Of a DNA stretch of 64,000 nt, positions 18,325 through 40,169 are shown one piece after another. The stretch lies in the NCBI GenBank assembly GCA_016711215.1, contig JADJTL010000003.1, positions 256,709-320,708 of the forward strand, read 5' to 3'. The notes beneath the pieces were generated by a model. That model did no database searches. It was given only the letters and a program-made list of their open reading frames with translations, and was not told the DNA's origin. Position 1 is the first letter of the stretch, and each line of letters starts with the position of its first letter. A program made the position numbers and the translations under genes. The stretch is from Pseudomonadota bacterium. GTDB taxonomy: Bacteria > Myxococcota_A > Polyangia > GCA-2747355.

Positions 18325-19434
18325 TTGGAGCGATCCACCTTGCCCGCTACGCTGGCCGCATGCTGGTCGGCGCTCCGGCGAAAGGGAGGTGCGGGCGTGA
18401 GGCAGGGCTCCTTTGGTCCCCATTTTCGGCTGCTTTGCGTGATGGTGATCGTCACGGGGATCGATCAGCCGCGCAGCCGCGCGCGCGCGGCTGGCGCGGG
18501 CTTGGGACCCTTCGCAGCGGCATGGTGGCGGCTCGGTGAAGCGGCGGGGCCGCGCCCGGAGGCGCGCGCCCGCTGCGCGGCTGCCGCGGCGCCCAGCGCC
18601 TTGGCGCGCTTGCTGGCAGAGCTCGGTGATGCGGGCCTGGCTGCACCGGACGACCGCGCCCGGCTCCGCAGCTGGCATCGGGTGATCTTCGGCAAGTGGC
18701 GCTTCAGCGCGCTGCCAGCGGGCGGCCCGCCGACCCTGGCGGCAACGCAGCTGCCTGCGCTGTTGGCCCGCCGGCAGGGAAGCTGCCTGGGCCTCGGCGC
18801 CCTCTACCTGGCCCTGGGGGAGGCGCTCGGGCTGCCGCTGCGGGGTGTGCTCGTCCCGGGTCACTTCTTCGTGCGCCTGCAGGCGCACGATGGGGGCCCC
18901 GCGCGCAACGTCGAGCTGCTTGCCGCGGGGCGCGCGTATAGCGATGACTGGTATCGGCGCAGGTACCGCGTTCCCGCCGACCATCCGCTCTACCTGCGCT
19001 CGCTCTCCTCCGCCGAGAGCCTCGCCGTCTTGCGCTACGAGCTCGCGAACGCGCTGCGCGGCGCCGGCGCCTTGCAGGCCGCCCGCGCCCACTACGCCTT
19101 GGTCGTCGACCAGCTCCCGGCTTTCGCCGAGGCGCAGAGCAACCTGGGCCTCAGCGAGCAGCTCCTTGGCGATCGCGCGGCGGCGGCGCGATCGTACCGT
19201 CGCGCGCTCCGCGCCGGCGCGCCGGCAGCCGGGATCAGGCGCAATCTTCGGCGGCTGGCGCGCGAGCGCCCCTCGCGCTGGCGCGCGCCGGGCCCGCCAG
19301 CGGCTCCTGCTGGGTCAAGCAATGGAGCGTACCCAGTCCCCATACCAGATCAACCGCGTGAATGCCGACCACCGGACGATCGCGAAACAGCTCGGCCAGC
19401 ACGCCCAGCGCCTGCCGATCACGCGGATCGTTGA
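18325..19434 (+). CDS. Transglutaminase-like (Cys-His-Asp fold) protein with C-terminal TPR repeats
   Basis: Motif RQGSCLGLGALYLALGEALGLPLRGVLVPGHFFV matches the transglutaminase-like core (G-x-C...GIPAR...H). TPR-like helices follow. The 3' ~200 bp overlap the convergent aguA. Confidence 0.5.
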   Translation: MERSTLPATLAACWSALRRKGGAGVRQGSFGPHFRLLCVMVIVTGIDQPRSRARAAGAGLGPFAAAWWRLGEAAGPRPEARARCAAAAAPSALARLLAELGDAGLAAPDDRARLRSWHRVIFGKWRFSALPAGGPPTLAATQLPALLARRQGSCLGLGALYLALGEALGLPLRGVLVPGHFFVRLQAHDGGPARNVELLAAGRAYSDDWYRRRYRVPADHPLYLRSLSSAESLAVLRYELANALRGAGALQAARAHYALVVDQLPAFAEAQSNLGLSEQLLGDRAAAARSYRRALRAGAPAAGIRRNLRRLARERPSRWRAPGPPAAPAGSSNGAYPVPIPDQPRECRPPDDRETARPARPAPADHADR

Positions 19435-20407
19435 AGGTCGGCACCAGCACCGCCGCATTGCCGACATAGAAGTTGGCGTAGCTGGCAGGCAGGCGCCGCC
19501 CGCCGAACCAGAGCGGAGCCGGCATCGGCAGCGCCACCACCTGCGGACGCGATCCGTCCTCGAGGCGCAGCGCCTGCAGGCGCTCGCGGTTCTCCGCCAG
19601 CGCCCCGTAGTTGGCGTCGCGCGGGTCGTCCTCGCTGCAGAGCACGACAGTGCGCCGGTCGACGAAGCGGCAGAGATCGTCGACGTGGCCGTGGGTATCG
19701 TCGCCGGCGATCCCGCGACCGAGCCAGAGCACCTGGCTGATCCCGAGGTAGTCGGCCAAGAGCCGCTCGTAGCCACGCCGGTCGAGGCCCGAATTGCGCA
19801 CCTGAACCTCAGGATCGAGCAGGCATTCCTCCGTCACCAGGGCGCTACCGTAGCCGTTGACGTCGATCGCCCCGCCCTCGAGCACGAAGTCGCGCGCGCC
19901 GCGGCGGGCCCGCAGCACCGGCAGGCCCAGGTGACGCGCCGCGCGCTCCGCCAGGCGCGCATCCAGCTGCCAATCCGAGTAACGCGCCCACGCGTTGAAG
20001 CCGAAGCTGCAGACCTTCAGCGCGCTGTCCTGCGCGCGCCGGTCGTCGACGAAAACGGGCCCGCTATCACGGAGCCAGCCGCGATTGGTCGGCCAGGGCA
20101 ACCAGTCGATCTGAGCGAGATCGACGCCGACGCGCGCGAGCACCGAGCGAGCCCGCCGCTCGACCGCCGTGGAGGCGACGACGAGGCGGAGTCGTTCGCC
20201 TGGCGCCAGGCGGCGCACGATCTCACCGAAGACCCAGTGGATCGCACCCAGCTTGCCGGGCCAGTCGCTCGCGTTATGGGGCCAGGCCAGCCACGTCGCG
20301 GCATGCCGCTCCCATTCGGCGGGCATCCGGTAGCGCAACCCAGCCGGCGGCGCTGCCTCCCCCGTGCCCACCGCGATCCTCCGCGTCGGCGGCGTCGCCC
20401 GGCTCAT
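19235..20407 (-). CDS. aguA: Agmatine deiminase
   Basis: PAD_porph family signature N-terminus (MPAEWERHAATWLAWPHNASDWPGKL). 390 aa. Directly downstream of aguB and speA. Confidence 0.85.
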   Translation of the reverse strand: MSRATPPTRRIAVGTGEAAPPAGLRYRMPAEWERHAATWLAWPHNASDWPGKLGAIHWVFGEIVRRLAPGERLRLVVASTAVERRARSVLARVGVDLAQIDWLPWPTNRGWLRDSGPVFVDDRRAQDSALKVCSFGFNAWARYSDWQLDARLAERAARHLGLPVLRARRGARDFVLEGGAIDVNGYGSALVTEECLLDPEVQVRNSGLDRRGYERLLADYLGISQVLWLGRGIAGDDTHGHVDDLCRFVDRRTVVLCSEDDPRDANYGALAENRERLQALRLEDGSRPQVVALPMPAPLWFGGRRLPASYANFYVGNAAVLVPTFNDPRDRQALGVLAELFRDRPVVGIHAVDLVWGLGTLHCLTQQEPLAGPARASARGARAPAAEDCA

Positions 20408-21321
20408 TTGTCGATGAAGCGGCGCTGAAGATCAGCGTAGGCGTCGATGCGCCGATCGCGCAAGAAGGGCCAATGGCGTCGCACCTGCTCGATGCGGGAC
20501 GACTCGATGGTCGCCAGCAGGATCTGCTCGTCCGCCGCGCCCGCCTCCGCCAGGACGACGCCCTGCGGATCGCAGACGAACGACGAGCCCCAGAACTCGA
20601 TCCCCGCGCCCCCGGCCTCGCCGGGCTCATGACCGACGCGATTGGCCGCGGCAACGTACACGCCGTTCGCCACCGCATGGCCGCGCTGGACCGTGCGCCA
20701 GGCGTCGCGCTGCACGGCGCCCTCCGCCTGCTTCTCCTGCGGATGCCAACCGATGGCGGTCGGGTAGAAGAGCACCGACGCGCCGCGCAAGGCAGCCAAG
20801 CGTGCGGCCTCCGGGTACCACTGGTCCCAACAAATCAGCACGGCGATCCGCACCTGTCCCAAGTCGAAGGCGAGGAACCCGAGATCGCCGGGCGCGAAGT
20901 AGTATTTCTCGTAGTAGCCCGGATCATCCGGGATGTGCATCTTGCGGTAGACGCCGCTCAAGGCGCCCTCAGCGTCGAGCAGCGCCGCGCTGTTGTGAAA
21001 GACGCCTGCCGCGCGCCGCTCGAAGAGTGGAACGATCAGCGCGACCCGCTCGCGCCGCGCGACCGCCGCCAGCGCCTGCGTCGTCGGGCCGGGAATCGGC
21101 TCCGCCGCGTCGAAGTGCTGCACGGCTTCGTGCTGACAGAAATAGCGTCGAAGGAAGAGCTCGGGTAGGCAGACCAACGCGGCACCCCGCCCAGCGGCCT
21201 CCCCAATCAGCTCGGTGGCGCGGCGCAGGTTGTCGGCCGGCTCGGGGCCCATCGCCATCTGCACGAGCGCGATCTTGGTACTAGTCATGATCGAAGGGCG
21301 CTCCAGTCGCCGTGGCGCCAC
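20404..21321 (-). CDS. aguB: N-carbamoylputrescine amidase (carbon-nitrogen hydrolase)
   Basis: CN-hydrolase motifs (KIALVQM...CLPELF; catalytic Cys in VLICWDQWYPE). 305 aa. Confidence 0.85.
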   Translation of the reverse strand: MAPRRLERPSIMTSTKIALVQMAMGPEPADNLRRATELIGEAAGRGAALVCLPELFLRRYFCQHEAVQHFDAAEPIPGPTTQALAAVARRERVALIVPLFERRAAGVFHNSAALLDAEGALSGVYRKMHIPDDPGYYEKYYFAPGDLGFLAFDLGQVRIAVLICWDQWYPEAARLAALRGASVLFYPTAIGWHPQEKQAEGAVQRDAWRTVQRGHAVANGVYVAAANRVGHEPGEAGGAGIEFWGSSFVCDPQGVVLAEAGAADEQILLATIESSRIEQVRRHWPFLRDRRIDAYADLQRRFIDK

Positions 21322-21343
21322 GAAGCCTCACTCCCACAACCCG

Positions 21344-23296
21344 TCACTCCAAGTAGGTGTAGCCGGCCATCCCGCTCTCGTAGAACTCGAGCAGGGAGCG
21401 TCCCTCCGCCACGCTGAGCGTGCTCGCCCGCAGCGCGCGCTCGACGTCCTGACGCATCGTCCGGACCATCTCCCCGCCGCTATAGCCGACGTAAGCGAGC
21501 ACCTCGCGCACCGAGTCACCTTCGATCACCTCGTCGATCGACCAGGAGCCTTCGGCGTCGAGACTGACCCGGACGACGTGGTTGTCGCCGAAGAGATTGT
21601 GCAGGTCGCCGAGCACCTCTTGGTAGGCGCCGACGAGACAGGCCGCCAGCGTGTAGCGCTCGTCGCCCTGAGTCTCGTGCAGCTCCAAGGTGCGCTTGAT
21701 GTCCCGCCGGTCGACGAAGTTGTCGACCTTGCCGTCCGAGTCGCAGGTAATGTCGGCCAAGGTCGCCGCCCGCGTCGGGCGCTCGTTCAAGCGGTGCAAG
21801 GGCAGAATCGGAAAGAGCTGATCGACCGCCCAGGCGTCCGGCAGCGACTGAAAGACGCTGAAGTTACAGTAGTAGGTGTCGCTCAGCCCCTCACGGAGAT
21901 CGCTGAGCTCCTCGGGCAACTCCCCGCGCTTCTCGGCGCGGGCCAGGATCTGGCGCCCGATCGCCCAAAAGAGCTTCTCCGCGTCGGCGCGCATCGGCAG
22001 CGTGAGGTAGCCGAGCGAGAAGAGGTTCATCGCCTCATCACGCGCCTGGACCGCGTCGTGGAAGGCCTCGGAGAGCCGGCGATCGGTGATGCTCTCGAAG
22101 GCATCGAGCAGGTCGAGCACGGGCTGCGGCGGGTCGTCCTCCGCGGCGACCCGCGCGCGAATGGCCTCGATGTCGGGCTCGCTGTCGAAATGTGAGCGCC
22201 CGACGACGTCGAAGACGAGCACAGTGGAATACGCCACCATCGCCCGGCCGGACTCGCTGAAGATCGTCGGGTGCGGGACGCCGGCGTCGTCGCAGACGGT
22301 CTTGATGCGGTAGATCAAATCGCTGGCGTACTCGCGGATCGAGTAGTTGACGCTCGACTCGAAGACCGAGCTACTGCCGTCGTAGTCGACGCCGAGCCCG
22401 CCGCCGACGTCGATGTACTCGATGCCGGCGCCGAGTCGACGCAGCTCGGTGTAGAAGTACGCCAGCTCCGTGACGGCGCTCTTCAGGCGCCGAATATCCG
22501 ACACCTGACTTCCCAGGTGGAAGTGGACCATCTTCAGGCAGTCGAGCATCCCGTGCCGCTCGAGCTCTTCGATCACCCGCAAGGCCTCGGCGGCCGTCAG
22601 CCCGAACTTGCTGCGCATGCCGGAGGACGAGGCCCACTTGCCGGTGCTGCGCGCGGCCGGCTTGATGCGCAGACCGACCAGGGGCCGCGTCTGATGCCGC
22701 TGCGCCTGCTCGATGATCAGCTCGAGTTCATTGAAGCGCTCGACGACCGGAATGATCCGCCGACCGAGCTTGGTCGCCAACACCACGGTCTCGATGTACT
22801 CGTGGTCCTTGAAGCCGTTGCAGACGATCGGCATGTCGTTGTGGCCGACCGTCATCGCCAAGACCGCCAGCAGCTCCGGCTTCGAACCAGCCTCCAGCCC
22901 ATAGCCGAGCTGCGCGCCGATGTTGCGGATCTCCTCGCAGACGTCGCGCTCCTGGTTGACCTTGATCGGATAGACGAAGCAGTAGCCGCCCTGGTACTGG
23001 TTCTCCTCGATCGCCGCGTCGAAGGCCTGCCGCAGCTCGTGGAGCCGGTCGCGCGCGAGGTCGGGGAAGCGCAGGAGTACGGGAGGATTGATGCCGCGCT
23101 CACGCAGGCCCTCGACCACCTCCCAGACGTCGATTCCGCGCTCGGGTTGACGCGTCGGGCAGATCGTCAGATGCCCAGTCGGACTGATGCGGAAATAGCC
23201 TTTCCCCCAGTCCTCGAGTCCATAGAGCGCACGAGCATCATCGGCAGTCCAGGCGCCGTCGAGCAGCGCATTATGACGGAGGGGGTCGGCAGACAT
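21344..23296 (-). CDS. speA: Biosynthetic arginine decarboxylase
   Basis: 650 aa. N-terminus WTADDARALYGLEDWGKGYFRISPTGHLTI and PLP-fold Orn/Arg decarboxylase body typical of SpeA. Confidence 0.9.
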   Translation of the reverse strand: MSADPLRHNALLDGAWTADDARALYGLEDWGKGYFRISPTGHLTICPTRQPERGIDVWEVVEGLRERGINPPVLLRFPDLARDRLHELRQAFDAAIEENQYQGGYCFVYPIKVNQERDVCEEIRNIGAQLGYGLEAGSKPELLAVLAMTVGHNDMPIVCNGFKDHEYIETVVLATKLGRRIIPVVERFNELELIIEQAQRHQTRPLVGLRIKPAARSTGKWASSSGMRSKFGLTAAEALRVIEELERHGMLDCLKMVHFHLGSQVSDIRRLKSAVTELAYFYTELRRLGAGIEYIDVGGGLGVDYDGSSSVFESSVNYSIREYASDLIYRIKTVCDDAGVPHPTIFSESGRAMVAYSTVLVFDVVGRSHFDSEPDIEAIRARVAAEDDPPQPVLDLLDAFESITDRRLSEAFHDAVQARDEAMNLFSLGYLTLPMRADAEKLFWAIGRQILARAEKRGELPEELSDLREGLSDTYYCNFSVFQSLPDAWAVDQLFPILPLHRLNERPTRAATLADITCDSDGKVDNFVDRRDIKRTLELHETQGDERYTLAACLVGAYQEVLGDLHNLFGDNHVVRVSLDAEGSWSIDEVIEGDSVREVLAYVGYSGGEMVRTMRQDVERALRASTLSVAEGRSLLEFYESGMAGYTYLE

Positions 23297-23359
23297 GCGC
23301 GCAAACTACTCGATCCCGTGCGCGCGCGCTACTGCGGTCGAGCCCGCGGGATCAGGCGG

Positions 23360-24520
23360 CTATTCGGCATGCTCGGACCCAGCACCGGCCGCCGGCAGCG
23401 GCGGCGGCGCGCCCAGGGCTGGCGCTGCACCCAGGGCCGCCAGCGCGGCCTCTTGCGTCAGCCGGGCGTTGCGCAGCAGCACCGTCAACCAGTAGTTCAT
23501 CCGCTCGGCGTTCGTCGTGTCGCGCCAGTGGCGAAAGTGCGGCGCAAAGGCTGCCAGCGGCTGGCGCCCTTCAACCGGATGGACCTCGACGGTGAAGCTG
23601 ACCTGCGCGGCCGCCAGCCAGCGCAGCGCGCTGGCGACGATCGCCTGCAGCCCCCGCGGGCCATACATCATCGGCAAGCAGTGCTGGCCCTGAAACTCGA
23701 AGGGCAAGACCACCCGCTCGAGGAAGCTGGCGTGGTCGGCCACGCCGTAGCGGTTCAGGGTCCAGAGGGGATGACCATCGTGCAGATGGAAGTGCAGGGG
23801 CTTACCGATCCGCGCGAGCGCCTCGATCTGCTCGAGCAGCCAGGGCAGAACGCTCCGCACTGCGCCCTCCACCACGGCGATCAGCGCTGGCAGCTCGTCG
23901 GCGTAGGGCGTCAAGGCGCAGACGTCGAGGCCGGGGCGGCGCGCCGCGAAGGCCACCCGCGCCTGCTGAATGCCGAGGTGACCGACGTCGATGCAGGCGC
24001 TGATCTGCGACAGCTCGGCGATGCTGGCGAACATCGCGACAAAGCGCGATGCCTCGACTCCGACCGCATACTCGACGAAGAGCAGCGGCTCGGGCCGACC
24101 CAAGGCGCGCAAGTCGGCGTCGAGCGCGCGTAACGCCGCCCGATACTCGTCCGGGCTCTCGACGAGATCCCATTGATCGTGCGCCACGAGCCCACGCACC
24201 CGCGCCGGGGATCGCCGGGCGAACTCGACGACCCAATGCCGGTCGTCCTCCCGCAGCAGGTTCAGCCCGCGCGGCAGATGCGCGTGGATCGTAAGCGCGT
24301 TGCCTGGGGTCTGCCCCACGACGTCGTTCAAGCGCTCCGGGGCGCCGGGATAGACCTCGGCGCCGATCCCCGCGCGCTCGAAGCGCAGCCGTGCCAACTG
24401 AAAGAGCGTGTCGTCGCCCTCGAGGCGCTTATCGAAGAGCCCCAGCAGGGCGGGCTGCTGCCGCGCAAGCATTGGTGCTCCGCGGCTCTCTGGCGCGCTC
24501 TCGCTGGTTGAAAGGCTCAT
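23360..24520 (-). CDS. Xylose-isomerase-like TIM-barrel protein (sugar phosphate isomerase/epimerase, AP-endonuclease-2 family), paralog 1
   Basis: Metal-site pattern EYA...CIDVGH...HFHLHDGHP...DH. Paralogous to 27249..28112. Directly downstream of GWD-like gene 1. Confidence 0.55.
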   Translation of the reverse strand: MSLSTSESAPESRGAPMLARQQPALLGLFDKRLEGDDTLFQLARLRFERAGIGAEVYPGAPERLNDVVGQTPGNALTIHAHLPRGLNLLREDDRHWVVEFARRSPARVRGLVAHDQWDLVESPDEYRAALRALDADLRALGRPEPLLFVEYAVGVEASRFVAMFASIAELSQISACIDVGHLGIQQARVAFAARRPGLDVCALTPYADELPALIAVVEGAVRSVLPWLLEQIEALARIGKPLHFHLHDGHPLWTLNRYGVADHASFLERVVLPFEFQGQHCLPMMYGPRGLQAIVASALRWLAAAQVSFTVEVHPVEGRQPLAAFAPHFRHWRDTTNAERMNYWLTVLLRNARLTQEAALAALGAAPALGAPPPLPAAGAGSEHAE

Positions 24521-24522
24521 CG

Positions 24523-27273
24523 TCAGTCCTCGTCGCCCAGTGGCGGCGACAATCCCAGTGGCGGCGACAATCCCAGTGGCGGCGACAATCCCAGTGGCCG
24601 CGACAATCCCAGTGGCCGCGACAGTCCCAGTTGCGCTCGCGTCTGCAGCGCCAGCAGCGCGTCGGCGACCAGCGCGCCCTCGATGTCCTGCGGCATTCCG
24701 GCCCGCGCTTCAATCAGTCGCGCCAACGACGCCAGCTTCTGGCCCAACCGCTCGCGCCAGGCTGGGTCGCAAAGGATCGGCATTCCAGCGTAGCGCACCG
24801 GCGCCGCGCACAAGCCGCCGTTCGCGGCAGGGCGCAGGGCCTCAGCGTAGCTGGCGCAGCCGAGCAACGTCGTCGCCCCGCCGTCCTTGCGGCAACGCAA
24901 GCGAAAGGGCGTCCCCGCGGCGCCGCTCGCCAGCGTCTCACCCAACCCCACTGCGCACTCGACCAGCGCAAAGGCACGGTCGCAGGTTAGCGGATCAACG
25001 GTGTGGATGACGAACGAAAGTTCAGCGTCGATCAGTTGCTGGACAATCACGGCCATCCGCGCAGGCGGCGCTCCAGCGAACTGCTGCGCACGCACGCGCA
25101 GCGCGCGCGCCGACCAGAGCGAGACCCAGACCTCCTTCAGCGCCCCGGCCACGGCCGCCGAGCTGACGTTCACCACGGAGCGAAACAGGCCGGCCGTCGT
25201 GTAGCCGACGCGATCCTCGGTGTCGGCGCTGGAGCGCACCACGAGCGGTGCGTCGGCGCCAAGCAGATCAACCAACCCCGCCAACAAGGCCGGTGGCACG
25301 GAAACCGCCGCCCAGAGCGCCGCGAGCGCAGCAGCCTGCGCCTCGGCCGCGCTGCCCCCCTCGGCGCGACCCTCGCCGGCGCTCGCCGCGCCTCCGCTCC
25401 AGCGCGCCCAGGCCGCGCGCCAGGGCGCAGGCTGCTCCGCGATCAGCCGCTCGAGCGCGCTGAAGGGCACGACCGCCGCGGGCGCGACGCGCAAGACGCT
25501 GGGCTCAGCGGCCGCAAGCTCGGCCAGCCAGCGGAGGCTCGCGGCCTTGGCGCCTGCGCGCTCGGCGCTCACCTCGTGCAGCGGCAGGAACCAGCGCGCC
25601 TCGCAATCAAGCGCCTCCTGCGTGGTGGCGCGGGTGATGGCCGCCGGGGCACTCGCTGGCTCCGGCGCCAGCGCGGGAGCCAAGGCCGCGGGTCTCAGCT
25701 CCACGCCATCGGCCCGCACCGTCAGCCGGAAGGGCCCCGCCGCGTCGGCGGCAGCGTCGCGCAGCAGCCCCTGCAAGGCCGCGGCGCTCCCCGCGGCGAA
25801 CGCCACGGCGTGCTGGCGCGCCCGCACGCCGAGGTGAGACAGCAGCGCCATCGGCTGACCGAGCAGCACGCCGACCACGCCCGGCGGCAAGACCTCATCG
25901 CCCGTCGCGCGGTCCACGCAGGCGATCACCGGCTCGGCGCCGGCGCCCTCGCGCGCGCCTCCAGCCTCGACGTCCTCGAGGCTGCTCGCGTGAAAGAGCC
26001 GCCCGACCACAGTCCCCGCGACCACCGCGCTCCACGGCGGCAGGCCCGCCTCGCGCCGCAACGCCGCCTCGAGCCACTCGGCGAGCTTGCTGAGCTGAAA
26101 GACGAGCGCGCCGCGCAGCTCGCCTTCGACGTAGCTGGCCAGCGCATGCGGCGCCACGCCAAGGGCGCGGCCCACGAGCTCGGCGCGCACGGCCAAGAGC
26201 GTCAGCGAGCGCGCGGCGCAGGCCGCGGCCAGACCCTGGGCCCGCTCTGTCGCGGCGAGGAGGGCCAGTAGGCGCCAGGCCTCCCCGGGCGGCGCCGCCA
26301 TCCAGCAGCGCAGATCGCTGCCCAGCGCGCGCGACTCCGCCTGCGCCACGCCGCTGAGCGCGAGCTGGTCGAGCAGCGCCCCCAGGGCCCCCAAGACGGT
26401 GCTCCACGGCGCCGGCTCCGGACTCGCCTCGAGCGCGCTGCAGAAGCGGCTCGCGACGAGAAACGCCTGGCGTTCGAGCGCCAGGTCGACGCGCTCGCAG
26501 CGCTGCGCCAGGGCGCTGGCGCTCCCGACGATCGATGGCTCGAGCCGCTCCCGCAGCGCGGTCAGCGCCCGCAGCTCCTGCAGCAGTTCCTCAGGCGTCG
26601 CGTCACGACCGAGCGCCTGCTGCTGCGCTCGTTGCAGCGCGGCTGCCGCGCTCTGGAGGTCCAGCTGCGCCTCACTCAGCAGTGGCGCGAGCTGCGCCGC
26701 GAGCTCACCCGCACCGAAGAACTGCTGCAGCTCCTCGTGGAACTTGCGGAACTCGCGCACAAAGGCCGGCGAATAGTCCGCCCCGGGCGCCGTGACGCGC
26801 TGCAGGAGCGCCGCGGAGGTCGCCAGATCCTCGGGACCCGCGCAGCGGTGGAGCTTGTTCTGCAGCGTATGCTTGATCTCGTGCTTGAGCGCCGACGGGA
26901 TGTCGTTGCGGTGCGCGATGTCGCGGATCCGGGTCAGCGGCTCGGCCGCGAGGAAGGCGCCATCGTAAGAGGGCAGCCAACGAACGATGCGGCGTAGCAG
27001 CCCTGCGTTGCCCGGGCGGCGCAGCGTGCGCAGACTCGCGTGGATACGCTGCGCCAGCCGCGCGTGATGCACCGGGCGAAAGTGCCGTCCATCCTCGACG
27101 CAGGGCAGCTCGCCCGTGCCGAGGAAGCGCAGGTAGATCCCGAGATCACGGAGCTGCTCATCGCTCACGCCGTCGGGCCCGGCCGCGCAGAGCTCCGCCA
27201 CCCACTCGAGCTTCTCGCGCCAGCTTCGCTGGCGGGCATTGGCCTCGACTAGTCGTTCGACCAGGCGGTCCAT
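24523..27273 (-). CDS. Alpha-glucan water dikinase (GWD)-like phosphotransferase, paralog 1, with a C-terminal (LGLSPP)n repeat tail
   Basis: Central GWD-like region IRDIAHRNDIPSALKHEIKHTLQNKLHRCAGPEDL. Swivel phospho-His motif LLSHLGVRARQHAV. C-terminal PPDK_N-type nucleotide-binding motif VVRSSADTEDRVGYTTAGLFRSVVNV. Domain order is His-domain then nucleotide-binding domain, as in GWD. Start uncertain; the ORF extends to 27591. Confidence 0.7.
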   Translation of the reverse strand: MDRLVERLVEANARQRSWREKLEWVAELCAAGPDGVSDEQLRDLGIYLRFLGTGELPCVEDGRHFRPVHHARLAQRIHASLRTLRRPGNAGLLRRIVRWLPSYDGAFLAAEPLTRIRDIAHRNDIPSALKHEIKHTLQNKLHRCAGPEDLATSAALLQRVTAPGADYSPAFVREFRKFHEELQQFFGAGELAAQLAPLLSEAQLDLQSAAAALQRAQQQALGRDATPEELLQELRALTALRERLEPSIVGSASALAQRCERVDLALERQAFLVASRFCSALEASPEPAPWSTVLGALGALLDQLALSGVAQAESRALGSDLRCWMAAPPGEAWRLLALLAATERAQGLAAACAARSLTLLAVRAELVGRALGVAPHALASYVEGELRGALVFQLSKLAEWLEAALRREAGLPPWSAVVAGTVVGRLFHASSLEDVEAGGAREGAGAEPVIACVDRATGDEVLPPGVVGVLLGQPMALLSHLGVRARQHAVAFAAGSAAALQGLLRDAAADAAGPFRLTVRADGVELRPAALAPALAPEPASAPAAITRATTQEALDCEARWFLPLHEVSAERAGAKAASLRWLAELAAAEPSVLRVAPAAVVPFSALERLIAEQPAPWRAAWARWSGGAASAGEGRAEGGSAAEAQAAALAALWAAVSVPPALLAGLVDLLGADAPLVVRSSADTEDRVGYTTAGLFRSVVNVSSAAVAGALKEVWVSLWSARALRVRAQQFAGAPPARMAVIVQQLIDAELSFVIHTVDPLTCDRAFALVECAVGLGETLASGAAGTPFRLRCRKDGGATTLLGCASYAEALRPAANGGLCAAPVRYAGMPILCDPAWRERLGQKLASLARLIEARAGMPQDIEGALVADALLALQTRAQLGLSRPLGLSRPLGLSPPLGLSPPLGLSPPLGDED
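24536..24631. repeat. 18-bp tandem repeat (CCCAGTGGCGGCGACAAT) x about 5.3. Encodes the C-terminal (LGLSPP) hexapeptide repeats of GWD-like 1
   Basis: Direct reading. Period 18. Two units carry G-to-C variants. Confidence 0.9.
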
Positions 27274-28112
27274 GCTCGCGCCCGTGGCTGCCCCAGCAGC
27301 TCGCATAGCCGATCCCTGGCCTCGTTGAGCAAGCGCGGCGGCCGTGGCCATTGCTCGAGGATTGCCGCGCCGGCGAAGCCGCGCGCCCGCAGCCGCGCGA
27401 TTAACCCCTGCAGCCCGGCCGGCGACTGCGCCGCCGGACCCGTAAAGAGCGTCAGGTGGCTGTCGCGATCGCCGTAGTTTTCGTGCAGGTGCAGATGAAT
27501 CAACGGCACGTGGTCGGCGAGCCGATCGACGTAGGCGAGGTAGTCGTTGCGCGTGCCGCCATAGAGGTTCGCGTGCCCGAGGTCGAGACACATGCCAGCG
27601 CGCTGCGTGCCGAACTGCGCGCGCAGCAGGGCGAAGAGCGCATTGAAGTGCTCGGGGCTGGTCTCGGGCGTGTTCTCGATCGCCAGCGCCAGCCGGTGGC
27701 GCGCGAGCTGCTGCGCAAGGTGCGCCGTCGCCTCCGCGAAGGCCTCGATGCCCTGACTGAGATCGAGGTGAAGGTTGATCAGCGTGGCGCCGAGGTCGAG
27801 CGCCAACTCGACCGACTGCTGGAGCCGCTCCGGGCCCCCGGGCTGCAGCGGGGTCGCGCGCCAGGGCGCGTGGACCGATTGCTGCACGCCGTGGCGATGC
27901 GCGGCGCTGCGCAGCTGCAGACGCTGGCCGGCGTCCAAATCGCCCTCCTCCCAGCCGAGCCCGATTTCGGGCCGATCAGGCCGATCGGGGAACCACTCAA
28001 ACGCGTCGAAGCCATGCTCGATCGCGTAGTCGAAGGGCTCGCCCACGCTGCTCGCGGCAAAGCTGGTCTGGTTTCCAATCCGGATCGGCACACGCCTCGG
28101 CGACTGTTGCAT
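27249..28112 (-). CDS. Xylose-isomerase-like TIM-barrel protein, paralog 2
   Basis: IENTPE...CLDLGHANLYG...IHLHLHENYGDRDSH metal-binding pattern. Start chosen at MQQSPRRVPIRIGNQT (ATG 28112). The ORF extends upstream to 28358. Confidence 0.6.
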   Translation of the reverse strand: MQQSPRRVPIRIGNQTSFAASSVGEPFDYAIEHGFDAFEWFPDRPDRPEIGLGWEEGDLDAGQRLQLRSAAHRHGVQQSVHAPWRATPLQPGGPERLQQSVELALDLGATLINLHLDLSQGIEAFAEATAHLAQQLARHRLALAIENTPETSPEHFNALFALLRAQFGTQRAGMCLDLGHANLYGGTRNDYLAYVDRLADHVPLIHLHLHENYGDRDSHLTLFTGPAAQSPAGLQGLIARLRARGFAGAAILEQWPRPPRLLNEARDRLCELLGQPRARAWTAWSND

Positions 28113-28204
28113 CCCTGCTCCCGTTGCCTTCACGTCGAACGCTAGCCGCGTCCGCACCCTCGCGCGACCGTCTGACGACCGACGCCGGCCCGTTCCCGCC
28201 GGGC

Positions 28205-31200
28205 CTAGAGACCCACCTGCGGCCGCGCCTGGACGACATAGAGCCGCCCCTCGCTGATCACACCCTCGATATCCTGGGGCGTGCCGAAGGCCCGCTCCAC
28301 GCTCAGGCCGATCTCTGCGATGCGACGCACCAGCGGCAGGCGTCGCGCGGCGTCCCACAAGAGCGGCTCCTCAGTATAGTCCAGCAGGCGCGCCGTCGGC
28401 GCCTCGGCCGTCACGCTGTCGTAGAGTCCAGCGCCAGCGTAGCCTGCCAGATCCTCGGCGTTGGCGTCCGAGCGGTAGATGAGCCCCCGAGCGCTCAAGG
28501 CCTCACTCTTGCTCGGATAGGCCACGATTCGCGCGCCCCCGTCGGCGTCGCCGAGGCGCGCCTTATCAACGACCACCGCCAGCGCGCGTCCCGGGTGGTT
28601 GCCGACGAGGGTCTCGCCGAGGCCCGGGACGAGCTCGAGGTAGAGTTCACGGGCGTTGCCATCGGCCGGATTGACGCTGTGCAGGACGAAGGCGTGATCG
28701 GCGGGCACCAGCGGCTGAATCAACACCGCGAGGTGGACGGCGCGGTGCGCGAGCTGCCAGTGCTGCCGCGCCTGGTAAGCGCGTTCGTTCCACTTCGAGG
28801 CCCAAACCCGCTTGATCTGCATCCAGCTCGTCGCGAGCGCGTCGCCGAGCGGCACGCCGACGGCCGCCAGCGCACTCTTCAGCGCCGGCGCCAGGGCCGC
28901 GGGCGCCTCCAGCTCCAGCACCAACGCGCGCAGGCGGCTCAGCAGCGCCACATCGATCGCCCCCTCGTCGGCGCGCCGCGTCCGCTCGGCATACTCCTCG
29001 GCCCGACCCGCGTTGGCGGGCAGCGCCAGGGCGCGCTCGAGGCCACCGAAGGGCACGGCGACGGCCGGGGGTACGATCGCCCACGAGGGCAACACCGCCG
29101 CGAGCCGCAGCAGCCCGCGCGCCTTGGCTCCCACCTGGTCCGGCCCGCAGCGCGCCAGGGGAAGGACCCAATCCTCGCCGCTCAGGTCGACGGCCGGCAG
29201 CACGAGCGGTGCGCGTGGCGTCGCTGCGGCCGCGGTGGCGCCCTCCAGCGCGGCCACCACCACATCGCCGCGCGCGTCGACCTCCAGCCGCACCTGCCGT
29301 CCCTGCAGCGCTTCGAGCTCGCTCAACTTCTGCGGCGCATAGCAGGTGGCGAAGAGCAGCCCCGCGTTGCGGGCGCGTACGGCGACGTGGGAGACGAGAT
29401 CCGTCGGCATCGGGGTGATCACCGCGGTCACCTGCTCGGGGATCTCCTCATCGCCACCGACCGAGCGCGAGAGCACGACCAGCGGCCCGCGCTGACCATC
29501 GAGTTGCAGCTCGCGCAGGGTGTCGACACAGCGCAGCTCCCCCTCCCCGCGCCCCGGACTGACCACCTGCCAGTCGCCCAGCGCAGCCACCGCCCGCAGC
29601 AAGGGGTCGAGGTGGCGCAGCAGCGCCGCGATCACGAAGCTCGGTCGCCCGCGCACCACCTCCTCGCTGAAGAGGCTGATGACCCAGGCCTCGACGCGCA
29701 GGGCGACCCCGAGCTGCTCGGCCTTGGGCTGCAGCAGCGCGTACCAGGCGTCGACCTCGCCACCGACGGCGCGGGCGACCCGCTCGACCACGGCCCGCGC
29801 ATGGCGCGCACGGTCAGCGTCGAAGGTTCCGTCGGCGCTGATGCGGCGCCAATGGCGCCGGCAGAGCTCGAGCTCCGGAAGCGCGCTGCTCAGGCCAAGG
29901 TTCTCGAGCACGTGCTCAACGAGCACCACCAGCTCTGCCAACGTCACGTCGGCGTCGAGCCAGCGCTCGACCGCGAGGCGAAGGTGGTCCTCGAGCGCGA
30001 GGTCGAGGTAGAGCAGCGCCCGCACGGTCTCGCCGCCAGCGAGGCGCCGGGCGAGGTTGCGGCGTAGGACGGTGATCGCCTCGACCACCTGCACGAGGAT
30101 GGCCGCCGGCGACGGGGACGCGGCGCCTGTGGCCCGGTCGATCCCGCGCGCGCCGCCATCCGCAGGGCTCGGGCGTGACAGGCTCAAGAGCCAGGCCAGC
30201 CGCTGACGGTCCTCGGGATCGCAGCTTTCTCGCGCCGCCGCCGCCGCCGCCGCCAGATCGTTCGCCTCATGCAACGCACGCAGCGTGCCGGCGAAGTGCT
30301 CGATGTCCTGGGCCAGGCCCGCCTTCAATCCCGGCACGAAGTCGGGCGCCGAGCGGATCGGCCGCTCGTAGCTTTCGAGGCGTTGGCGCGTCACGCCGTG
30401 TCGCTGCAGCTCGGCCCAGTACCGCAACAGATCGCCGTCGCTGCGCAAGAACGCGAGGTACGCCTCGGCGATCGCGACGTCGTCGGGCGTCGTGTTGTTA
30501 TGGAGCTTCTGATGCCACTCCTCGAGGAAGTGCCCCGCCACCTCCTTGATCCGATGGCGATGCATGATCTCGAGGATCTCGTCGCGGATGCGCTGGCCTT
30601 CGTTCGCCGCACCGACGGTGCCGAGCAACAGCCGCACGAGCGGCCGAGCGCGCGGCGCCCCCGCGAAGCGCTGCACCAGCAGCTCGCCCAAGCGCTGCTG
30701 CGCGTGGGCGAGCTCGCGCGGCTTGGTGTTGTAGCGCCGCTGCCAGTCGAGCTGGCGCAGCGCCGAGAACCGCAGCCAGACGAAGAGGTAGGCCAACGCG
30801 TCGGCGTCGGCGCCGCAGCCCTCGATCAGGGCGTGGCAGAGCTGATAGCGATGCATCAACGTCCACGACGAGCGCCCGAGCTCATGGGCCACGATCTCCT
30901 CGACGAGCCGCGCGCAGGCCACCGGCGCGCTGGGCCCATCGACCACCCCCGCTGACCGCAGCGGGACGACGAAATCACCGCCATGGTGATGCACCCAGCG
31001 TCCCCGGTCCGGCAGCAGCAAGACGAAGGTCAGCGCGGCCCAGGGACCCTGCGCCGGCAGGCGCAGGACCAGCGGCCCCTCCTCGGACCGAGGCGCGAGC
31101 GGCGTCTGCACCGCCGCCTCACCGACCGCGACCGACCCCGCCGGCCAGCACTCAGGCGGCGCCGCGTGCCAGCGCCCGTCGCCGGGCAGGCGCAGTCCCC

Positions 31201-31315
31201 AGTGCAGCACCAGCGGCCCGGGGCCTTGCGCGCTCAGGACGATCTCGGTCAGCTCAGCGTCGGCGCGCTGGTCGATCGTCATCCGGACGTCGCCCTGCTC
31301 GATTACCTGGCTCAT
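28205..31315 (-). CDS. Alpha-glucan water dikinase (GWD)-like phosphotransferase, paralog 2, with N-terminal CBM45-like domain
   Basis: N-terminal LVLHWGLRLPGDGRWHAAPPECWPAG resembles starch-binding CBM45. Central EEWHQKLHNNTTPDDVAIAEAYLAF is near-identical to the plant GWD motif as I recall it. Phospho-His motif DLVSHVAVRARNAGLLFATCY. C-terminal nucleotide-binding YRSDANAEDLAGYAGAGLYDSV. 1036 aa. Confidence 0.8.
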   Translation of the reverse strand: MSQVIEQGDVRMTIDQRADAELTEIVLSAQGPGPLVLHWGLRLPGDGRWHAAPPECWPAGSVAVGEAAVQTPLAPRSEEGPLVLRLPAQGPWAALTFVLLLPDRGRWVHHHGGDFVVPLRSAGVVDGPSAPVACARLVEEIVAHELGRSSWTLMHRYQLCHALIEGCGADADALAYLFVWLRFSALRQLDWQRRYNTKPRELAHAQQRLGELLVQRFAGAPRARPLVRLLLGTVGAANEGQRIRDEILEIMHRHRIKEVAGHFLEEWHQKLHNNTTPDDVAIAEAYLAFLRSDGDLLRYWAELQRHGVTRQRLESYERPIRSAPDFVPGLKAGLAQDIEHFAGTLRALHEANDLAAAAAAARESCDPEDRQRLAWLLSLSRPSPADGGARGIDRATGAASPSPAAILVQVVEAITVLRRNLARRLAGGETVRALLYLDLALEDHLRLAVERWLDADVTLAELVVLVEHVLENLGLSSALPELELCRRHWRRISADGTFDADRARHARAVVERVARAVGGEVDAWYALLQPKAEQLGVALRVEAWVISLFSEEVVRGRPSFVIAALLRHLDPLLRAVAALGDWQVVSPGRGEGELRCVDTLRELQLDGQRGPLVVLSRSVGGDEEIPEQVTAVITPMPTDLVSHVAVRARNAGLLFATCYAPQKLSELEALQGRQVRLEVDARGDVVVAALEGATAAAATPRAPLVLPAVDLSGEDWVLPLARCGPDQVGAKARGLLRLAAVLPSWAIVPPAVAVPFGGLERALALPANAGRAEEYAERTRRADEGAIDVALLSRLRALVLELEAPAALAPALKSALAAVGVPLGDALATSWMQIKRVWASKWNERAYQARQHWQLAHRAVHLAVLIQPLVPADHAFVLHSVNPADGNARELYLELVPGLGETLVGNHPGRALAVVVDKARLGDADGGARIVAYPSKSEALSARGLIYRSDANAEDLAGYAGAGLYDSVTAEAPTARLLDYTEEPLLWDAARRLPLVRRIAEIGLSVERAFGTPQDIEGVISEGRLYVVQARPQVGL

Positions 31316-31377
31316 CGGCTCAACACTTCATCCTGCTCGAGGCCGGCGATTCTGCCCCGGCCCTCGTCATCTTGCGC

Positions 31378-31511
31378 GACCCCATCCGCGACCCCATCCG
31401 CGACCCATCCGCGACCCATCCGCGACCCATCCGCGACCCAATCCCGACGCACGCCTGCTTGGGCCCTACGCACGCTTGCTTGGGCCCTACGCACGCCTGC
31501 TTGGGTGCGCG
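31378..31511. repeat. Two adjacent tandem-repeat arrays in the divergent promoter region between GWD-like 2 and the Ser/Thr kinase. First array is (GACCCCATCCGC)/(GACCCATCCGC) x5 at 31378-31446. Second is a 21-bp unit (GCACGCCTGCTTGGGCCCTAC) x3 at 31449-31511
   Basis: Direct reading. The first array shows period 12 collapsing to 11. The second shows period 21. Confidence 0.9.
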
Positions 31512-31609
31512 CCGCGACGGCCGCGCGCCGCTGGCGAGCGGCTCCGCCCTCCTGGGTGCTCGCATCGGACAACGCGACAATCCGGCCGGCCTTGTGGCAT
31601 CATGCCACG

Positions 31610-33202
31610 GTGCGGGCGCACGCTCACAGCCCCAACACCACGTCGTGGATGATCCTGCGCCGGCTCGGCAGCGGCTACTTCACCGAGGACGCGCTGGGCG
31701 CAGAGCCTGGGCCGACTGGCGTGACGCGCCTGGTGCTGATCAAGAGCCTCCTGCCGCGACTGCACGACGCCCGCCCCTTCGTCGGCGCCTGGCTCGCGCG
31801 CGCGACCGCGGCAATCGCGCTGCGCCACGACGGCATCGCGCGCGTCTTCGCCGCCGAGCCGCAGGGCGGCGGTGCGCGGGTCGTCACCGAGTACGTCGGC
31901 GGCGAGACGTTGCGCCTGCTGGTCAGCGCTCTGGCCGCACGCGAGCTCAGCCTACCGCTGGGCAGCGCCTGTCGGATTGTCGCGCAGGCGGCCGAGTCGT
32001 TGGCCTACGCCCACGCCCTACCCGACAGCGCCGACGATCGGAGGTCGCTGCTGCACGGCGATCTCTCGCCGGAGAACGTCGTCGTGACCTATGCCGGTCA
32101 GACCAAGCTGATCGACTTCGGGCTCGGGCGAGCCGACCCGCTGCGGAAGCACACCCCACCCAGCCGCCTGGCCAGCCGCATCGCGCACCAGGCCCCCGAG
32201 CAACTGCAGCAGCGCACGGTCGATCGACGCGCCGACGTCTGGGGCCTTGGCGTGCTGCTCTACGAGCTCCTTGCCGGCCGGCTGCTCTTTCACGGTGCCA
32301 CGCCACAGGAGGTGCTGGAAGCGGTCATGGGGGCTCCGGTGCCACCACCGAGCCGCTACAACCCGGCCATCCCACCAGAGCTTGACGCGGTCGTGCTGGA
32401 CGCGCTGGAGCGCGACGTGCCGCGGCGCATCTCGTCAGCCGCGGCGCTGCGCGAGCGGCTCGAGCAGGTCCTCGAACAGAGCGAAGGGGCGCACCCGGCT
32501 GCGCTCGGCGGCTGGCTGCGCGGCGCGCTGCGCGACTGCTACGCAGAGCGCCAGAGCATCGAACGCGAGGCGCGCACCGAGGCGATCGAGGCCCTGCGGG
32601 CCCAAGGGCCACCACCCTGGGCGACGGACGCGCCGGTCCTCATCGGCGCGCACCCTCGCTCGGCCTGGGCACGGGCCCGCAGCCGCGCCTGGGTCACCTT
32701 CCGACGCCGTCCGATCTTGGTCTCGGCGCTGCTGCTCGTGCCCGGCGCGAGCGGCCTTCTTTCGTATCGCCTGGGCCGCCACCTCGGCGCTGGCGAACAC
32801 GTGCCGTGGCGCCTCTGGCCGCTGGTCGCGCTCCTGGTCGCGGGGGGGACGCTGCTGGTCGCTTGGCGTCTGGGCGCAAAGCGCTGGCGGACCTCGCCGG
32901 CACCGGTCGCGAAGGAGCCGCTCAGCAGCGCCGAGCGCGAAGCCGCAGCGTGGCGCAACGAGGCTCAGCACCGCCGCAAGCGCCTGACGGAGGCCGAGCG
33001 CGCGCTGAGCCGCGTCGACGGCCACCTGGCCGACGCCATGGACCAGCTCGTCGAGGCGGAAGAACGGGCGAGCCAGGCGGAGCGCCTCGAGCGAGCCCTC
33101 GGCGAGGCGCACGCCGAGCTGCGGCAGCTGCGTGACTTGGCCGAGCGCACTGGGGCCTCGCGCGACGCCGCCGCTACCGCGAAGGATCGCGCCAGTCGAT
33201 GA
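31610..33202 (+). CDS. Ser/Thr protein kinase-like protein with C-terminal TM helices and a coiled-coil tail
   Basis: Kinase fold with atypical catalytic loop LLHGDLSPENVVV (HGD, Lys replaced by Ser), DFG present (LIDFG), APE present. Two hydrophobic helices. Ala/Arg-rich coiled coil at the C-terminus. Start uncertain (GTG 31610 or ATG 31649). The long upstream ORF extension runs across the repeat region and was rejected. Confidence 0.7.
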   Translation: MRAHAHSPNTTSWMILRRLGSGYFTEDALGAEPGPTGVTRLVLIKSLLPRLHDARPFVGAWLARATAAIALRHDGIARVFAAEPQGGGARVVTEYVGGETLRLLVSALAARELSLPLGSACRIVAQAAESLAYAHALPDSADDRRSLLHGDLSPENVVVTYAGQTKLIDFGLGRADPLRKHTPPSRLASRIAHQAPEQLQQRTVDRRADVWGLGVLLYELLAGRLLFHGATPQEVLEAVMGAPVPPPSRYNPAIPPELDAVVLDALERDVPRRISSAAALRERLEQVLEQSEGAHPAALGGWLRGALRDCYAERQSIEREARTEAIEALRAQGPPPWATDAPVLIGAHPRSAWARARSRAWVTFRRRPILVSALLLVPGASGLLSYRLGRHLGAGEHVPWRLWPLVALLVAGGTLLVAWRLGAKRWRTSPAPVAKEPLSSAEREAAAWRNEAQHRRKRLTEAERALSRVDGHLADAMDQLVEAEERASQAERLERALGEAHAELRQLRDLAERTGASRDAAATAKDRASR

Positions 33203-40083: not shown

Positions 40084-40169
40084 GAACCCGCCTTGTCGTC
40101 GCTAGAGGCGAGGAGGTCATCGCCCCCCACCCGAGGTCAGCGCGCCCAACGAGTGCGCCGCTCCGCCAC

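Follow-up and report, generated by a model that had tools for sequence, protein, structure and literature searches.

A conserved bacterial cluster of glucan, water dikinase-like genes and Endo IV-like TIM-barrel genes: a candidate module for reversible phosphorylation of storage alpha-glucans

Background

The phosphorylation of glucans by alpha-glucan, water dikinase (GWD, EC 2.7.9.4) and phosphoglucan, water dikinase (PWD, EC 2.7.9.5) has been treated as a hallmark of starch-storing eukaryotes. The phosphatases of this system, SEX4 and LSF2, and laforin in animals, share the dual-specificity phosphatase (DSP) fold with its CX5R motif and usually carry a carbohydrate-binding module (CBM). Here we analyze a bacterial cluster in which two dikinase genes alternate with two genes for proteins of the TIM-barrel (beta/alpha barrel) fold. 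The cluster lies in a stretch of 64,000 nucleotides, hereafter the window, from a Pseudomonadota bacterium placed by GTDB in the Polyangia of Myxococcota_A (assembly GCA_016711215.1, contig JADJTL010000003.1, positions 256,709 to 320,708 of the forward strand), and its genes are called GWD2, TIM2, GWD1 and TIM1 in the order in which they are read. We consider a functional link between the TIM-barrel proteins and the dikinases to be very highly probable, and we propose, with moderate confidence, that the four predicted proteins constitute a conserved bacterial module for the reversible phosphorylation of a storage alpha-glucan.

The bacterial genes resemble the plant and algal system in encoding two dikinase types with the same phospho-histidine and ATP-binding domains, in the homology of the GWD central domain, in their alpha-glucan context, and in that phosphate-removing partners would be needed. 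They differ from it in several respects: 1) the plant partners are cysteine-dependent DSPs with CBM20 or CBM48, whereas the bacterial partners are predicted TIM-barrel metalloproteins; 2) these partners share an operon with the dikinases, with which they often form fusion proteins; 3) the bacterial PWD-like enzyme lacks the CBM20 of plant PWD; 4) the bacterial hosts are non-photosynthetic and have glycogen-type glucans. Neither TIM2 nor TIM1 has a DSP or CBM match in Pfam, and their likeness to SEX4, LSF2 and laforin is one of proposed function only.

Three further systems serve as points of comparison for the TIM barrels. The first, endonuclease IV (Endo IV; Nfo/Apn1), has in the Escherichia coli protein Nfo a three-metal site whose nine ligands we take to be H69, H109, E145, D179, H182, H216, D229, H231 and E261. 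TIM2 shares with Endo IV the fold and the nine ligand positions and finds among Endo IV-like proteins its best structural and solved-sequence relatives, but it falls far under the equivalog cut-off, occurs in a glucan context and is fused to dikinases. Among the listed archaeal homologs of the family, the apurinic/apyrimidinic (AP) endonuclease of Pyrococcus furiosus, PfuAPE, acts as a 3'-phosphatase on a sugar 3'-phosphate in a polymer, and the same list includes MJ1311 of Methanocaldococcus jannaschii as an Nfo homolog (PMC2770678). The second, CbiR (NCBIfam NF041277), is a member of the superfamily with proven activity as a metal-dependent phosphodiesterase, and it hydrolyzes a non-DNA phosphoester with the same conserved His/Asp/Glu set (PMC7733943). 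It is the best NCBIfam match of both TIM2 and TIM1 and exemplifies the recruitment of the superfamily for phosphoesters outside DNA; TIM2, however, scores below its cut-off, no cobamide genes lie nearby, and another substrate would be expected. The third, comprising pyruvate, phosphate dikinase (PPDK) and phosphoenolpyruvate (PEP) synthase, shares with our cluster the ATP-grasp nucleotide domain, the swivelling phospho-histidine mechanism and the combination with a TIM barrel. There, the barrel comes from an unrelated family (PEP-utilizers_C) and forms the acceptor site, whereas those described here would belong to the Endo IV/xylose-isomerase superfamily and are probably hydrolytic.

Bacterial GWD genes have been mentioned only as possible lateral transfers (PMC6260743), and a paper of 2025 still asks if bacterial glycogen is phosphorylated at all (PMC13011383). 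Our literature searches on bacterial GWD, glucan phosphatases and TIM-barrel partners returned no description of the module or of a bacterial GWD function.

Results and discussion

The cluster and the conservation of its gene pairs

Genes were called from open reading frames (ORFs), guided by the G+C content of third codon positions (GC3), and translated; the G+C content of the window is ~70%. All coordinates are positions within the window, and the cluster is read on the minus strand:

28205-31315, minus strand: GWD2, predicted GWD-type alpha-glucan, water dikinase of 1036 amino acids (aa), with Ig-like N-terminal, central helical, phospho-histidine and ATP-binding domains
27249-28112, minus strand: TIM2, xylose-isomerase-like or Endo IV-like TIM barrel (PF01261) of 287 aa with a nine-residue metal site
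27249-27273, minus strand: 25-nt overlap of the TIM2 stop and the start of the PWD-like gene, the split point of the TIM2::PWD polypeptide of most relatives
24523-27273, minus strand: GWD1, PWD-like dikinase of 916 aa from the ATG at 27273, with central, phospho-histidine and ATP-binding domains
24536-24635, minus strand: 18-bp tandem repeat, 5.6 copies (Tandem Repeats Finder score 172, 95% matches), in the C-terminal tail of the PWD-like protein
23360-24520, minus strand: TIM1, divergent TIM barrel of 386 aa from an unannotated family, recognized by family alignment and AlphaFold model

The first-pass annotation of this DNA had given the order GWD2, TIM2, GWD1, TIM1, and all four genes were recovered, consecutive and tightly packed. 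TIM2 has a Shine-Dalgarno sequence, GGGAG, in front of its start, which lies 92 nt past the GWD2 stop, and the ATG of TIM1, preceded by GAGGA, lies 2 nt past the GWD1 stop. A scan of positions 23000-31700 revealed no intergenic terminator-like site between the four genes, and only chance-level ones inside them.

It had further been claimed that each dikinase has a TIM-barrel partner of its own and that the two work together, a claim for which co-occurrence in other genomes was the proposed check. The pairing next to dikinases proved to be conserved elsewhere, well beyond chance. In a scan centred on TIM1, with one genome per species, relatives were found in 266 species; the best 80 loci were analyzed by tblastn, and the 64 with at least 3.4 kb of upstream sequence were counted as informative. 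TIM2 and the PWD-like gene lie directly upstream of TIM1 on the same strand in 48 of these 64, mostly with a GWD-type gene before them. A second scan, centred on GWD-type genes in metagenome contigs, gave 63 informative loci with at least 900 nt past the GWD stop, and TIM2 follows the GWD-type gene at a distance of 2-212 nt in 51 of them (81%). Both pairs also occur alone: PWD and TIM1 are absent from about half of the GWD-TIM2 loci for which 4 kb or more is available downstream. Among the contexts with precomputed Pfam assignments, three show the full cluster (L001, L004, L087), two show GWD-TIM2 alone, adjoining GlgA with GH57 or GlgB (L088, L089), and one shows the PWD-TIM1 pair alone (L086). 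Genes for alpha-glucan enzymes occur within 6 kb in 18 of the 28 long GWD-centred loci. The pairing is spread over at least seven phyla, its carriers being Desulfobacterota, Nitrospirota, Planctomycetota including Scalindua, Verrucomicrobiota, Acidobacteriota, Gammaproteobacteria and the lineage of the window.

Several loci depart from the common arrangements. L061 has GWD-TIM2-TIM1 and no PWD-like gene, and in L142 TIM1 comes directly after the GWD gene. In L095 an unidentified ORF of 1162 aa follows GWD, with matches to TIM2 and the PWD-like enzyme 3.7-4.6 kb downstream of the GWD stop. TIM1 behind the last part of a PWD-like gene was also seen in L037, a 2.4-kb contig assigned to the bin of a Promethearchaeota (Asgard) archaeon, where a binning error is more likely than an archaeal copy of the pair. 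The PWD-TIM1 part is likewise carried by Luteolibacter marinus NBU1238 (L062) and Desulfobacterota bacterium M19 (L055), whose records are not labelled as metagenome-assembled genomes.

The two dikinases

The GWD2 protein matches the Pfam domains Ig_N_CWD1 (1.2e-17), GWD1_pHisD (5.2e-29) and PPDK_N (1.5e-22), all above cut-off, and its residues 135-577 align with the central domain of the solved potato enzyme StGWD1 (9ha9/9qvi) at E 3.7e-77. Its phospho-histidine motif reads S-H643-VAVRARN, with H643 invariant in 20 homologs. It thus combines the Ig-like N-terminus, central domain, catalytic-histidine domain and C-terminal nucleotide-binding domain by which GWD (EC 2.7.9.4) is recognized, and its domains predict a genuine GWD-type enzyme.

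GWD1 matches GWD1_pHisD (1.4e-12) and PPDK_N (3.3e-23) above cut-off, and its central domain carries the motif RIRDIAHRNDIP..LKHEIKHTLQNKLHRCAGPEDL. We term it PWD-like because it lacks a Pfam Ig domain, has only 26% identity with GWD2 across the full length (E 3e-29), does not, unlike GWD2, match the central domain of StGWD1, and has homologs bearing the JGI family name 'phosphoglucan,water dikinase'. On these names and on the central-domain result, it appears to be a PWD-like enzyme rather than the second GWD that the first-pass annotation had seen in it. The CBM20 starch-binding domain expected of PWD was not found by Pfam in GWD1 of the window. The C-terminal tail of this protein has the form (LGLS[R/P]P)n and is encoded by the 18-bp repeat.

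TIM2 and its metal site

TIM2 matches the AP_endonuc_2 profile (PF01261) over positions 1-243 of 249 with 93.6 bits (cut-off 31.1, E 2e-26). The metal-site pattern initially noticed in both TIM proteins is indeed present, and its residues are invariant in the respective families; in TIM2 the motifs are E146, D177-x-G-H180, H206-L-H208-L-H210-E211, D217-x-H219 and E253. When the TIM2 family was aligned with E. coli Nfo (hhalign, 91%, E 1e-6), TIM2 residues H81, H115, E146, D177, H180, H210, D217, H219 and E253 were paired, in this order, with the nine Nfo ligands given above. All nine are invariant in the family alignment and are also kept in about 89 TIM2 domains that are fused to other domains. 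The sugar epimerases and isomerases of the same fold use a smaller, four-ligand E-D-H-E set. TIM2 has five ligands beyond this set (H81, H115, H180, D217 and H219), as in the trinuclear site of Endo IV.

Database comparisons point the same way. The best NCBIfam match of TIM2 is the CbiR phosphodiesterase (E 7.7e-12, 45.2 bits, below the cut-off of 105), and the deoxyribonuclease IV (DNase IV) equivalog gives 15.7 bits, short of its cut-off of 244. The best sequence matches in the Protein Data Bank (PDB) are MJ1311 and Endo IV. AlphaFold models TIM2 as a confident beta/alpha barrel (pLDDT 91), for which the top Foldseek match is the AP endonuclease of African swine fever virus (ASFV). Membership in a characterised unrelated subfamily, such as inosose dehydratase or hydroxypyruvate isomerase, had been named at the outset as a ground for giving up the pairing hypothesis. 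CbiR and DNase IV, both below cut-off, are the only NCBIfam matches; no isomerase, epimerase or dehydratase model (IolE, hydroxypyruvate isomerase, UlaE, D-psicose 3-epimerase and others) matches TIM2 or TIM1 at E <= 0.01, and the cluster contains no genes of inositol, ascorbate or ketose metabolism. In public records, TIM2 bears the name 'sugar phosphate isomerase/epimerase'; other labels given to proteins of the two TIM families are 'TIM barrel protein' and 'hypothetical protein'.

The nearest named relatives of TIM2 thus appear to be phosphoesterases (Endo IV and CbiR) and not sugar isomerases. The genomic context shows no link to DNA repair, and no cobamide genes lie near TIM2 or TIM1; the neighbours are dikinases and glucan enzymes. 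As judged from sequence, the dikinases belong to the known GWD/PWD family, while their TIM partners fall outside the characterised subfamilies and are unrelated to the DSP glucan phosphatases.

TIM1, a divergent relative

TIM1 has no Pfam match at E <= 0.01 and so cannot be assigned to PF01261; 6 of 40 members of its family show sub-threshold PF01261 matches, the best at 8.4e-4. The family keeps an invariant set of H81, H114, D115, E150, D178, H181, H243, H245, H247, D248, H250, D262, H263, E312 and H314, which includes the motifs E150, D178-x-G-H181, H243-F-H245-L-H247-D248, D262-H263 and E312. The two TIM proteins had been described as paralogs, for which BLASTP gives no support, since no significant alignment of TIM1 with TIM2 is obtained; homology emerges at the profile level (hhalign, 92% probability, E 5.6e-7), over the N-terminal half only, where H81, H114, E150, D178 and H181 of TIM1 are paired with H81, H115, E146, D177 and H180 of TIM2. 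They are therefore best described as very distant relatives, not recognizable as paralogs at the sequence level, and we propose that TIM1 carries a divergent version of the TIM2 metal site.

When the PDB sequences were searched using the profile of the TIM1 family, only His-tag artefacts and no solved relative came up. The best NCBIfam match is again CbiR (E 0.002, 17.6 bits, cut-off 105), with no match to DNase IV. The AlphaFold model is confident (pLDDT 90) and shows beta/alpha alternation, and its top Foldseek match is the ASFV AP endonuclease 6ki3 (E 3e-5). A TIM1-family profile search of 1.84 billion cluster representatives retrieved only 331 clusters.

The first-pass annotation had interpreted the cluster as a duplicated two-gene module. 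An ancient tandem duplication of a dikinase-TIM pair is possible, and the order GWD-TIM2-PWD-TIM1 is what it would give; with the dikinases at 26% identity and the TIM proteins related at profile level only, the divergence is too deep for proof.

Domain fusions and the split in the window

Further evidence for joint action of the paired proteins comes from fusions. Among the best 120 PWD-like homologs, 89 have PF01261 at the N-terminus (for example P0016, P0059, P0078, P0086 and P0115), and in the Pfam assignments of the relatives with an N-terminal extension it is this domain, and no CBM, that appears. Within the 331 clusters retrieved with the TIM1 profile, Pfam likewise confirmed PWD::TIM1 fusions (P0363, P0366, P0377, P0350), a triple fusion TIM2::PWD::TIM1 (P0369) and a fusion of TIM1 to a glycogen-debranching or GH13-type domain (GH13/hDGE; P0361). 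Given such fusions, one can hardly doubt that both predicted TIM barrels are functionally linked to the dikinases and to alpha-glucan metabolism. One further protein, P0375, consists of TIM2, the phospho-histidine domain and TIM1 and has no recognizable ATP-binding domain.

TIM2 is thus usually the N-terminal domain of the PWD-like enzyme, and the window and its close relatives hold a split form; GWD1 of the window has no N-terminal TIM domain, and TIM2 is a separate gene there. Likewise, TIM2 and the PWD-like enzyme form one ORF in 43 of the 48 TIM1-centred loci and are split in five, including L006. Because TIM2 is the N-terminal PWD domain in most relatives, the unit is better described as one cluster, GWD / TIM2::PWD / TIM1, and gene adjacency suggests a natural route to the TIM2::PWD fusion. 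A frameshift artefact as the cause of the split was rejected, as L006, the closest relative, L087 and three further loci show the same split. We also rejected the notion, prompted by the fusions, that TIM2 belongs exclusively with the PWD-like enzyme, as GWD-TIM2 pairs without PWD are common.

TIM1 with CotH-family kinases

The TIM1 loci without a dikinase belong mainly to Actinomycetota and Dormibacterota. In all nine that were tested from these phyla (L046, L058, L066, L073, L076, L077, L083, L084 and L085), the same-strand gene immediately before TIM1 encodes a kinase of the CotH family (PF08757, E about 1e-45). In L046 the order is GH13 alpha-amylase, CotH, TIM1, and near the pairs of Actinomycetota there are mostly no obvious glycogen genes. 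With either a dikinase or CotH upstream, TIM1 follows some kind of kinase in nearly all informative loci. The CotH pairing would thus be an independent pointer to a phospho-substrate for TIM1, and CotH-TIM1 may represent another system of kinase and TIM1, perhaps with a glycan as its substrate. A literature search on glycan-phosphorylating CotH kinases returned nothing relevant.

Proposed function and its alternatives

We propose that TIM2 and TIM1 are metal-dependent phosphoglucan phosphatases that would take the role of SEX4 and LSF2, an assignment for which we see the balance as even. Phosphoester hydrolysis is the best-supported prediction for TIM2 because the nine Endo IV ligands are kept, the nearest relatives are CbiR, DNase IV, MJ1311 and Endo IV, and no isomerase-type model matches. 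An alpha-glucan is favoured as the substrate because the GWD2 central domain resembles that of potato GWD1, genes for TreZ and GlgB lie nearby, and glucan genes are found near other loci. In the proposed scheme, GWD2 would phosphorylate glucosyl residues at C6, presumably like plant GWD, and the PWD-like enzyme would act on the pre-phosphorylated glucan, presumably at C3 as in plants, both using ATP via the swivelling phospho-histidine domain. Each dikinase has a putative TIM-barrel metalloenzyme of its own behind it, which is TIM2 for GWD and TIM1 for PWD. TIM2, with its Endo IV-type trinuclear site, and TIM1, with the divergent version, would hydrolyze the glucan-bound phosphate esters, the allocation of each protein to a particular phosphate being presumptive. 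Chains loosened by phosphorylation would become fully degradable by amylolytic enzymes after phosphate removal.

Several observations weigh against this proposal. TIM2 is missing from the position immediately downstream of about 19% of bacterial GWD-type genes. TIM1 is tied to the superfamily only weakly: it lacks a Pfam match, alignment of its family with E. coli Nfo is not significant (hhalign, 5.9% probability), and its Foldseek TM-scores are only 0.39-0.48. The C-terminal half of its site (HFHLHD, DH, E-x-H) is matched to the Endo IV-type series by motif only. The good Foldseek matches of TIM2 include epimerases (D-psicose and D-tagatose 3-epimerases), 3-keto-glucoside lyases and C-glycoside deglycosidases, and the superfamily also holds lyases, dehydratases and epimerases acting on gluco-configured substrates. 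The characterised Endo IV-like enzymes are mainly phosphodiesterases on DNA, and we know of no proven function for MJ1311, the closest solved relative. Finally, a kinase with phosphatases fused at both ends looks like a futile cycle, a property shared by the plant cycle at the granule surface.

The activity that the public name 'sugar phosphate isomerase/epimerase' would suggest, and which the first-pass annotation had likewise entertained, is that of an isomerase, epimerase, dehydratase or beta-eliminating lyase with phosphorylated glucosyl residues, or phospho-oligosaccharides once released, as substrates. TIM2 does belong to PF01261, and its structural matches include the epimerases, lyases and deglycosidases just mentioned. 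We nevertheless consider this activity unlikely: no isomerase, epimerase or dehydratase equivalog of NCBIfam was matched at E <= 0.01, the five extra ligands of TIM2 yield exactly the Endo IV site, against which an isomerase or epimerase role would run, and no oxidoreductase that could generate a 3-keto intermediate is conserved in the clusters. Among the activities that had been listed for the TIM barrels, it is the metal-dependent phosphatase that the ligand alignment and the PDB and Foldseek relatives favour. A diester substrate is a further alternative. Both characterised relatives, Endo IV and CbiR, are phosphodiesterases; the barrels might cleave a glucan diester or cyclic phosphate (for example inter-chain or 2,3-cyclic), or the module might act on a polymer other than glycogen, as the CotH-TIM1 pairs of Actinomycetota, mostly without obvious glycogen genes nearby, could indicate. 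Yet GWD/PWD chemistry gives monoesters, GWD2 resembles the plant enzyme very closely in its central domain, many clusters are flanked by glycogen or alpha-glucan genes, and TIM1 is fused to GH13 in one protein, so that we regard this pair of options as quite improbable.

The barrels might also be non-hydrolytic, either holding the glucan in place of the CBM20 of plant PWD or offering a phosphoryl-acceptor site as in PPDK/PEP synthase. Swivelling-domain dikinases do use a TIM barrel as a second active site; TIM2 sits at the N-terminal place of the starch-binding module of plant PWD, fusions place TIM domains at both ends of the PWD-like enzyme, and both dikinases match PEP synthase, a match that shows family relationship only. 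However, both bacterial dikinases keep the central helical domain, and a structural study of StGWD1 identified the central domain as the partner of the His-domain in glucan phosphorylation (PMC13553574); its retention weighs against the TIM barrel as the phosphoryl-acceptor site. The plant enzymes, moreover, work without a TIM barrel, TIM2 and TIM1 are frequently separate polypeptides, TIM1 also pairs with the unrelated kinase type CotH, and the full, catalytic-looking nine-ligand site is invariant, all of which make a holding or acceptor role a rather remote prospect. Far less probable still is that the adjacency is incidental, in which case TIM2 would be an ordinary enzyme of DNA repair or housekeeping, similar to Endo IV, and TIM1 a hypothetical, unrelated protein. 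TIM2 does resemble AP endonucleases in sequence and fold, but its score for the DNase IV equivalog is far too low, the pairing recurs across phyla, and the repeated fusions effectively refute the idea.

A more specific version of the phosphatase proposal seems possible to us, and we advance it tentatively: TIM2 and TIM1 would form a new, non-DSP class of glucan phosphatases with an Endo IV-type trinuclear site, each dedicated to what its partner dikinase makes (for example, C6-phosphate in the case of TIM2 and C3-phosphate in that of TIM1); many non-photosynthetic bacteria would run a full plant-like cycle; GWD and PWD would be of bacterial origin; and CotH-TIM1 would be a second kinase/phosphatase system on a glycan.

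Genes and sites around the cluster

Upstream of GWD2 and divergent from the cluster lie genes for a Ser/Thr kinase, TreZ and a sigma-54 activator, with GlgB beyond:

31316-31600, no strand: divergent intergenic region upstream of GWD2, with 11-bp and 21-bp tandem repeats
33199-35004, plus strand: TreZ, malto-oligosyltrehalose trehalohydrolase, GH13 with CBM48 (TIGR02402, 631.5 bits, cut-off 538.8; Pfam CBM_48 and Alpha-amylase)
37780-40101, minus strand: GlgB, glycogen branching enzyme (NF003811, 1010.7 bits, above cut-off; Pfam agrees)

The intergenic region is a candidate regulatory region. Its arrays at 31375-31500, just upstream of the GWD2 start, comprise 6.5 copies of an 11-bp unit (CGCGACCCATC) and 2.8 copies of a 21-bp unit, and could be iterated regulator-binding sites; a sigma-70 promoter scan of 23000-31700, which includes this region, found no promoter-like site. 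On the plus strand (30983-36667), the genes for the Ser/Thr protein kinase, TreZ and the sigma-54 enhancer-binding response regulator (34994-36667) overlap at their stop and start codons, by which TreZ appears to be co-transcribed with the two signalling proteins. No TreY was seen beside TreZ. Ser/Thr kinases and sigma-54 regulators are numerous, which points to a genome of the myxobacterial kind.

Directly downstream of TIM1 on the same strand (19235-23296, minus) is speA, encoding arginine decarboxylase, followed by aguB-like and aguA-like genes, whose N-carbamoylputrescine-amidase-like and agmatine-deiminase-like products score below the equivalog cut-offs; together the three genes are predicted to form a putrescine pathway. 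As part of the module they were rejected, their adjacency not being conserved in other loci.

Conclusions

The cluster offers a concrete, widespread and testable candidate for a bacterial glucan-phosphorylation system, with putative phosphatases whose fold is completely different from that of SEX4, LSF2 and laforin. It also suggests a function for two large sets of proteins, one apparently mis-annotated as isomerase/epimerase or TIM barrel and the other labelled as hypothetical proteins, and the compact TIM2::PWD::TIM1 enzymes could serve starch engineering and structural work on the dikinase mechanism. The proposal bears as well on the origin of starch phosphorylation in plants. If its more specific version is true, a complete cycle of glucan phosphorylation and dephosphorylation would exist in Desulfobacterota, Nitrospirota, anammox Planctomycetota, Verrucomicrobiota and Myxococcota, and GWD and PWD would not be a eukaryotic invention.

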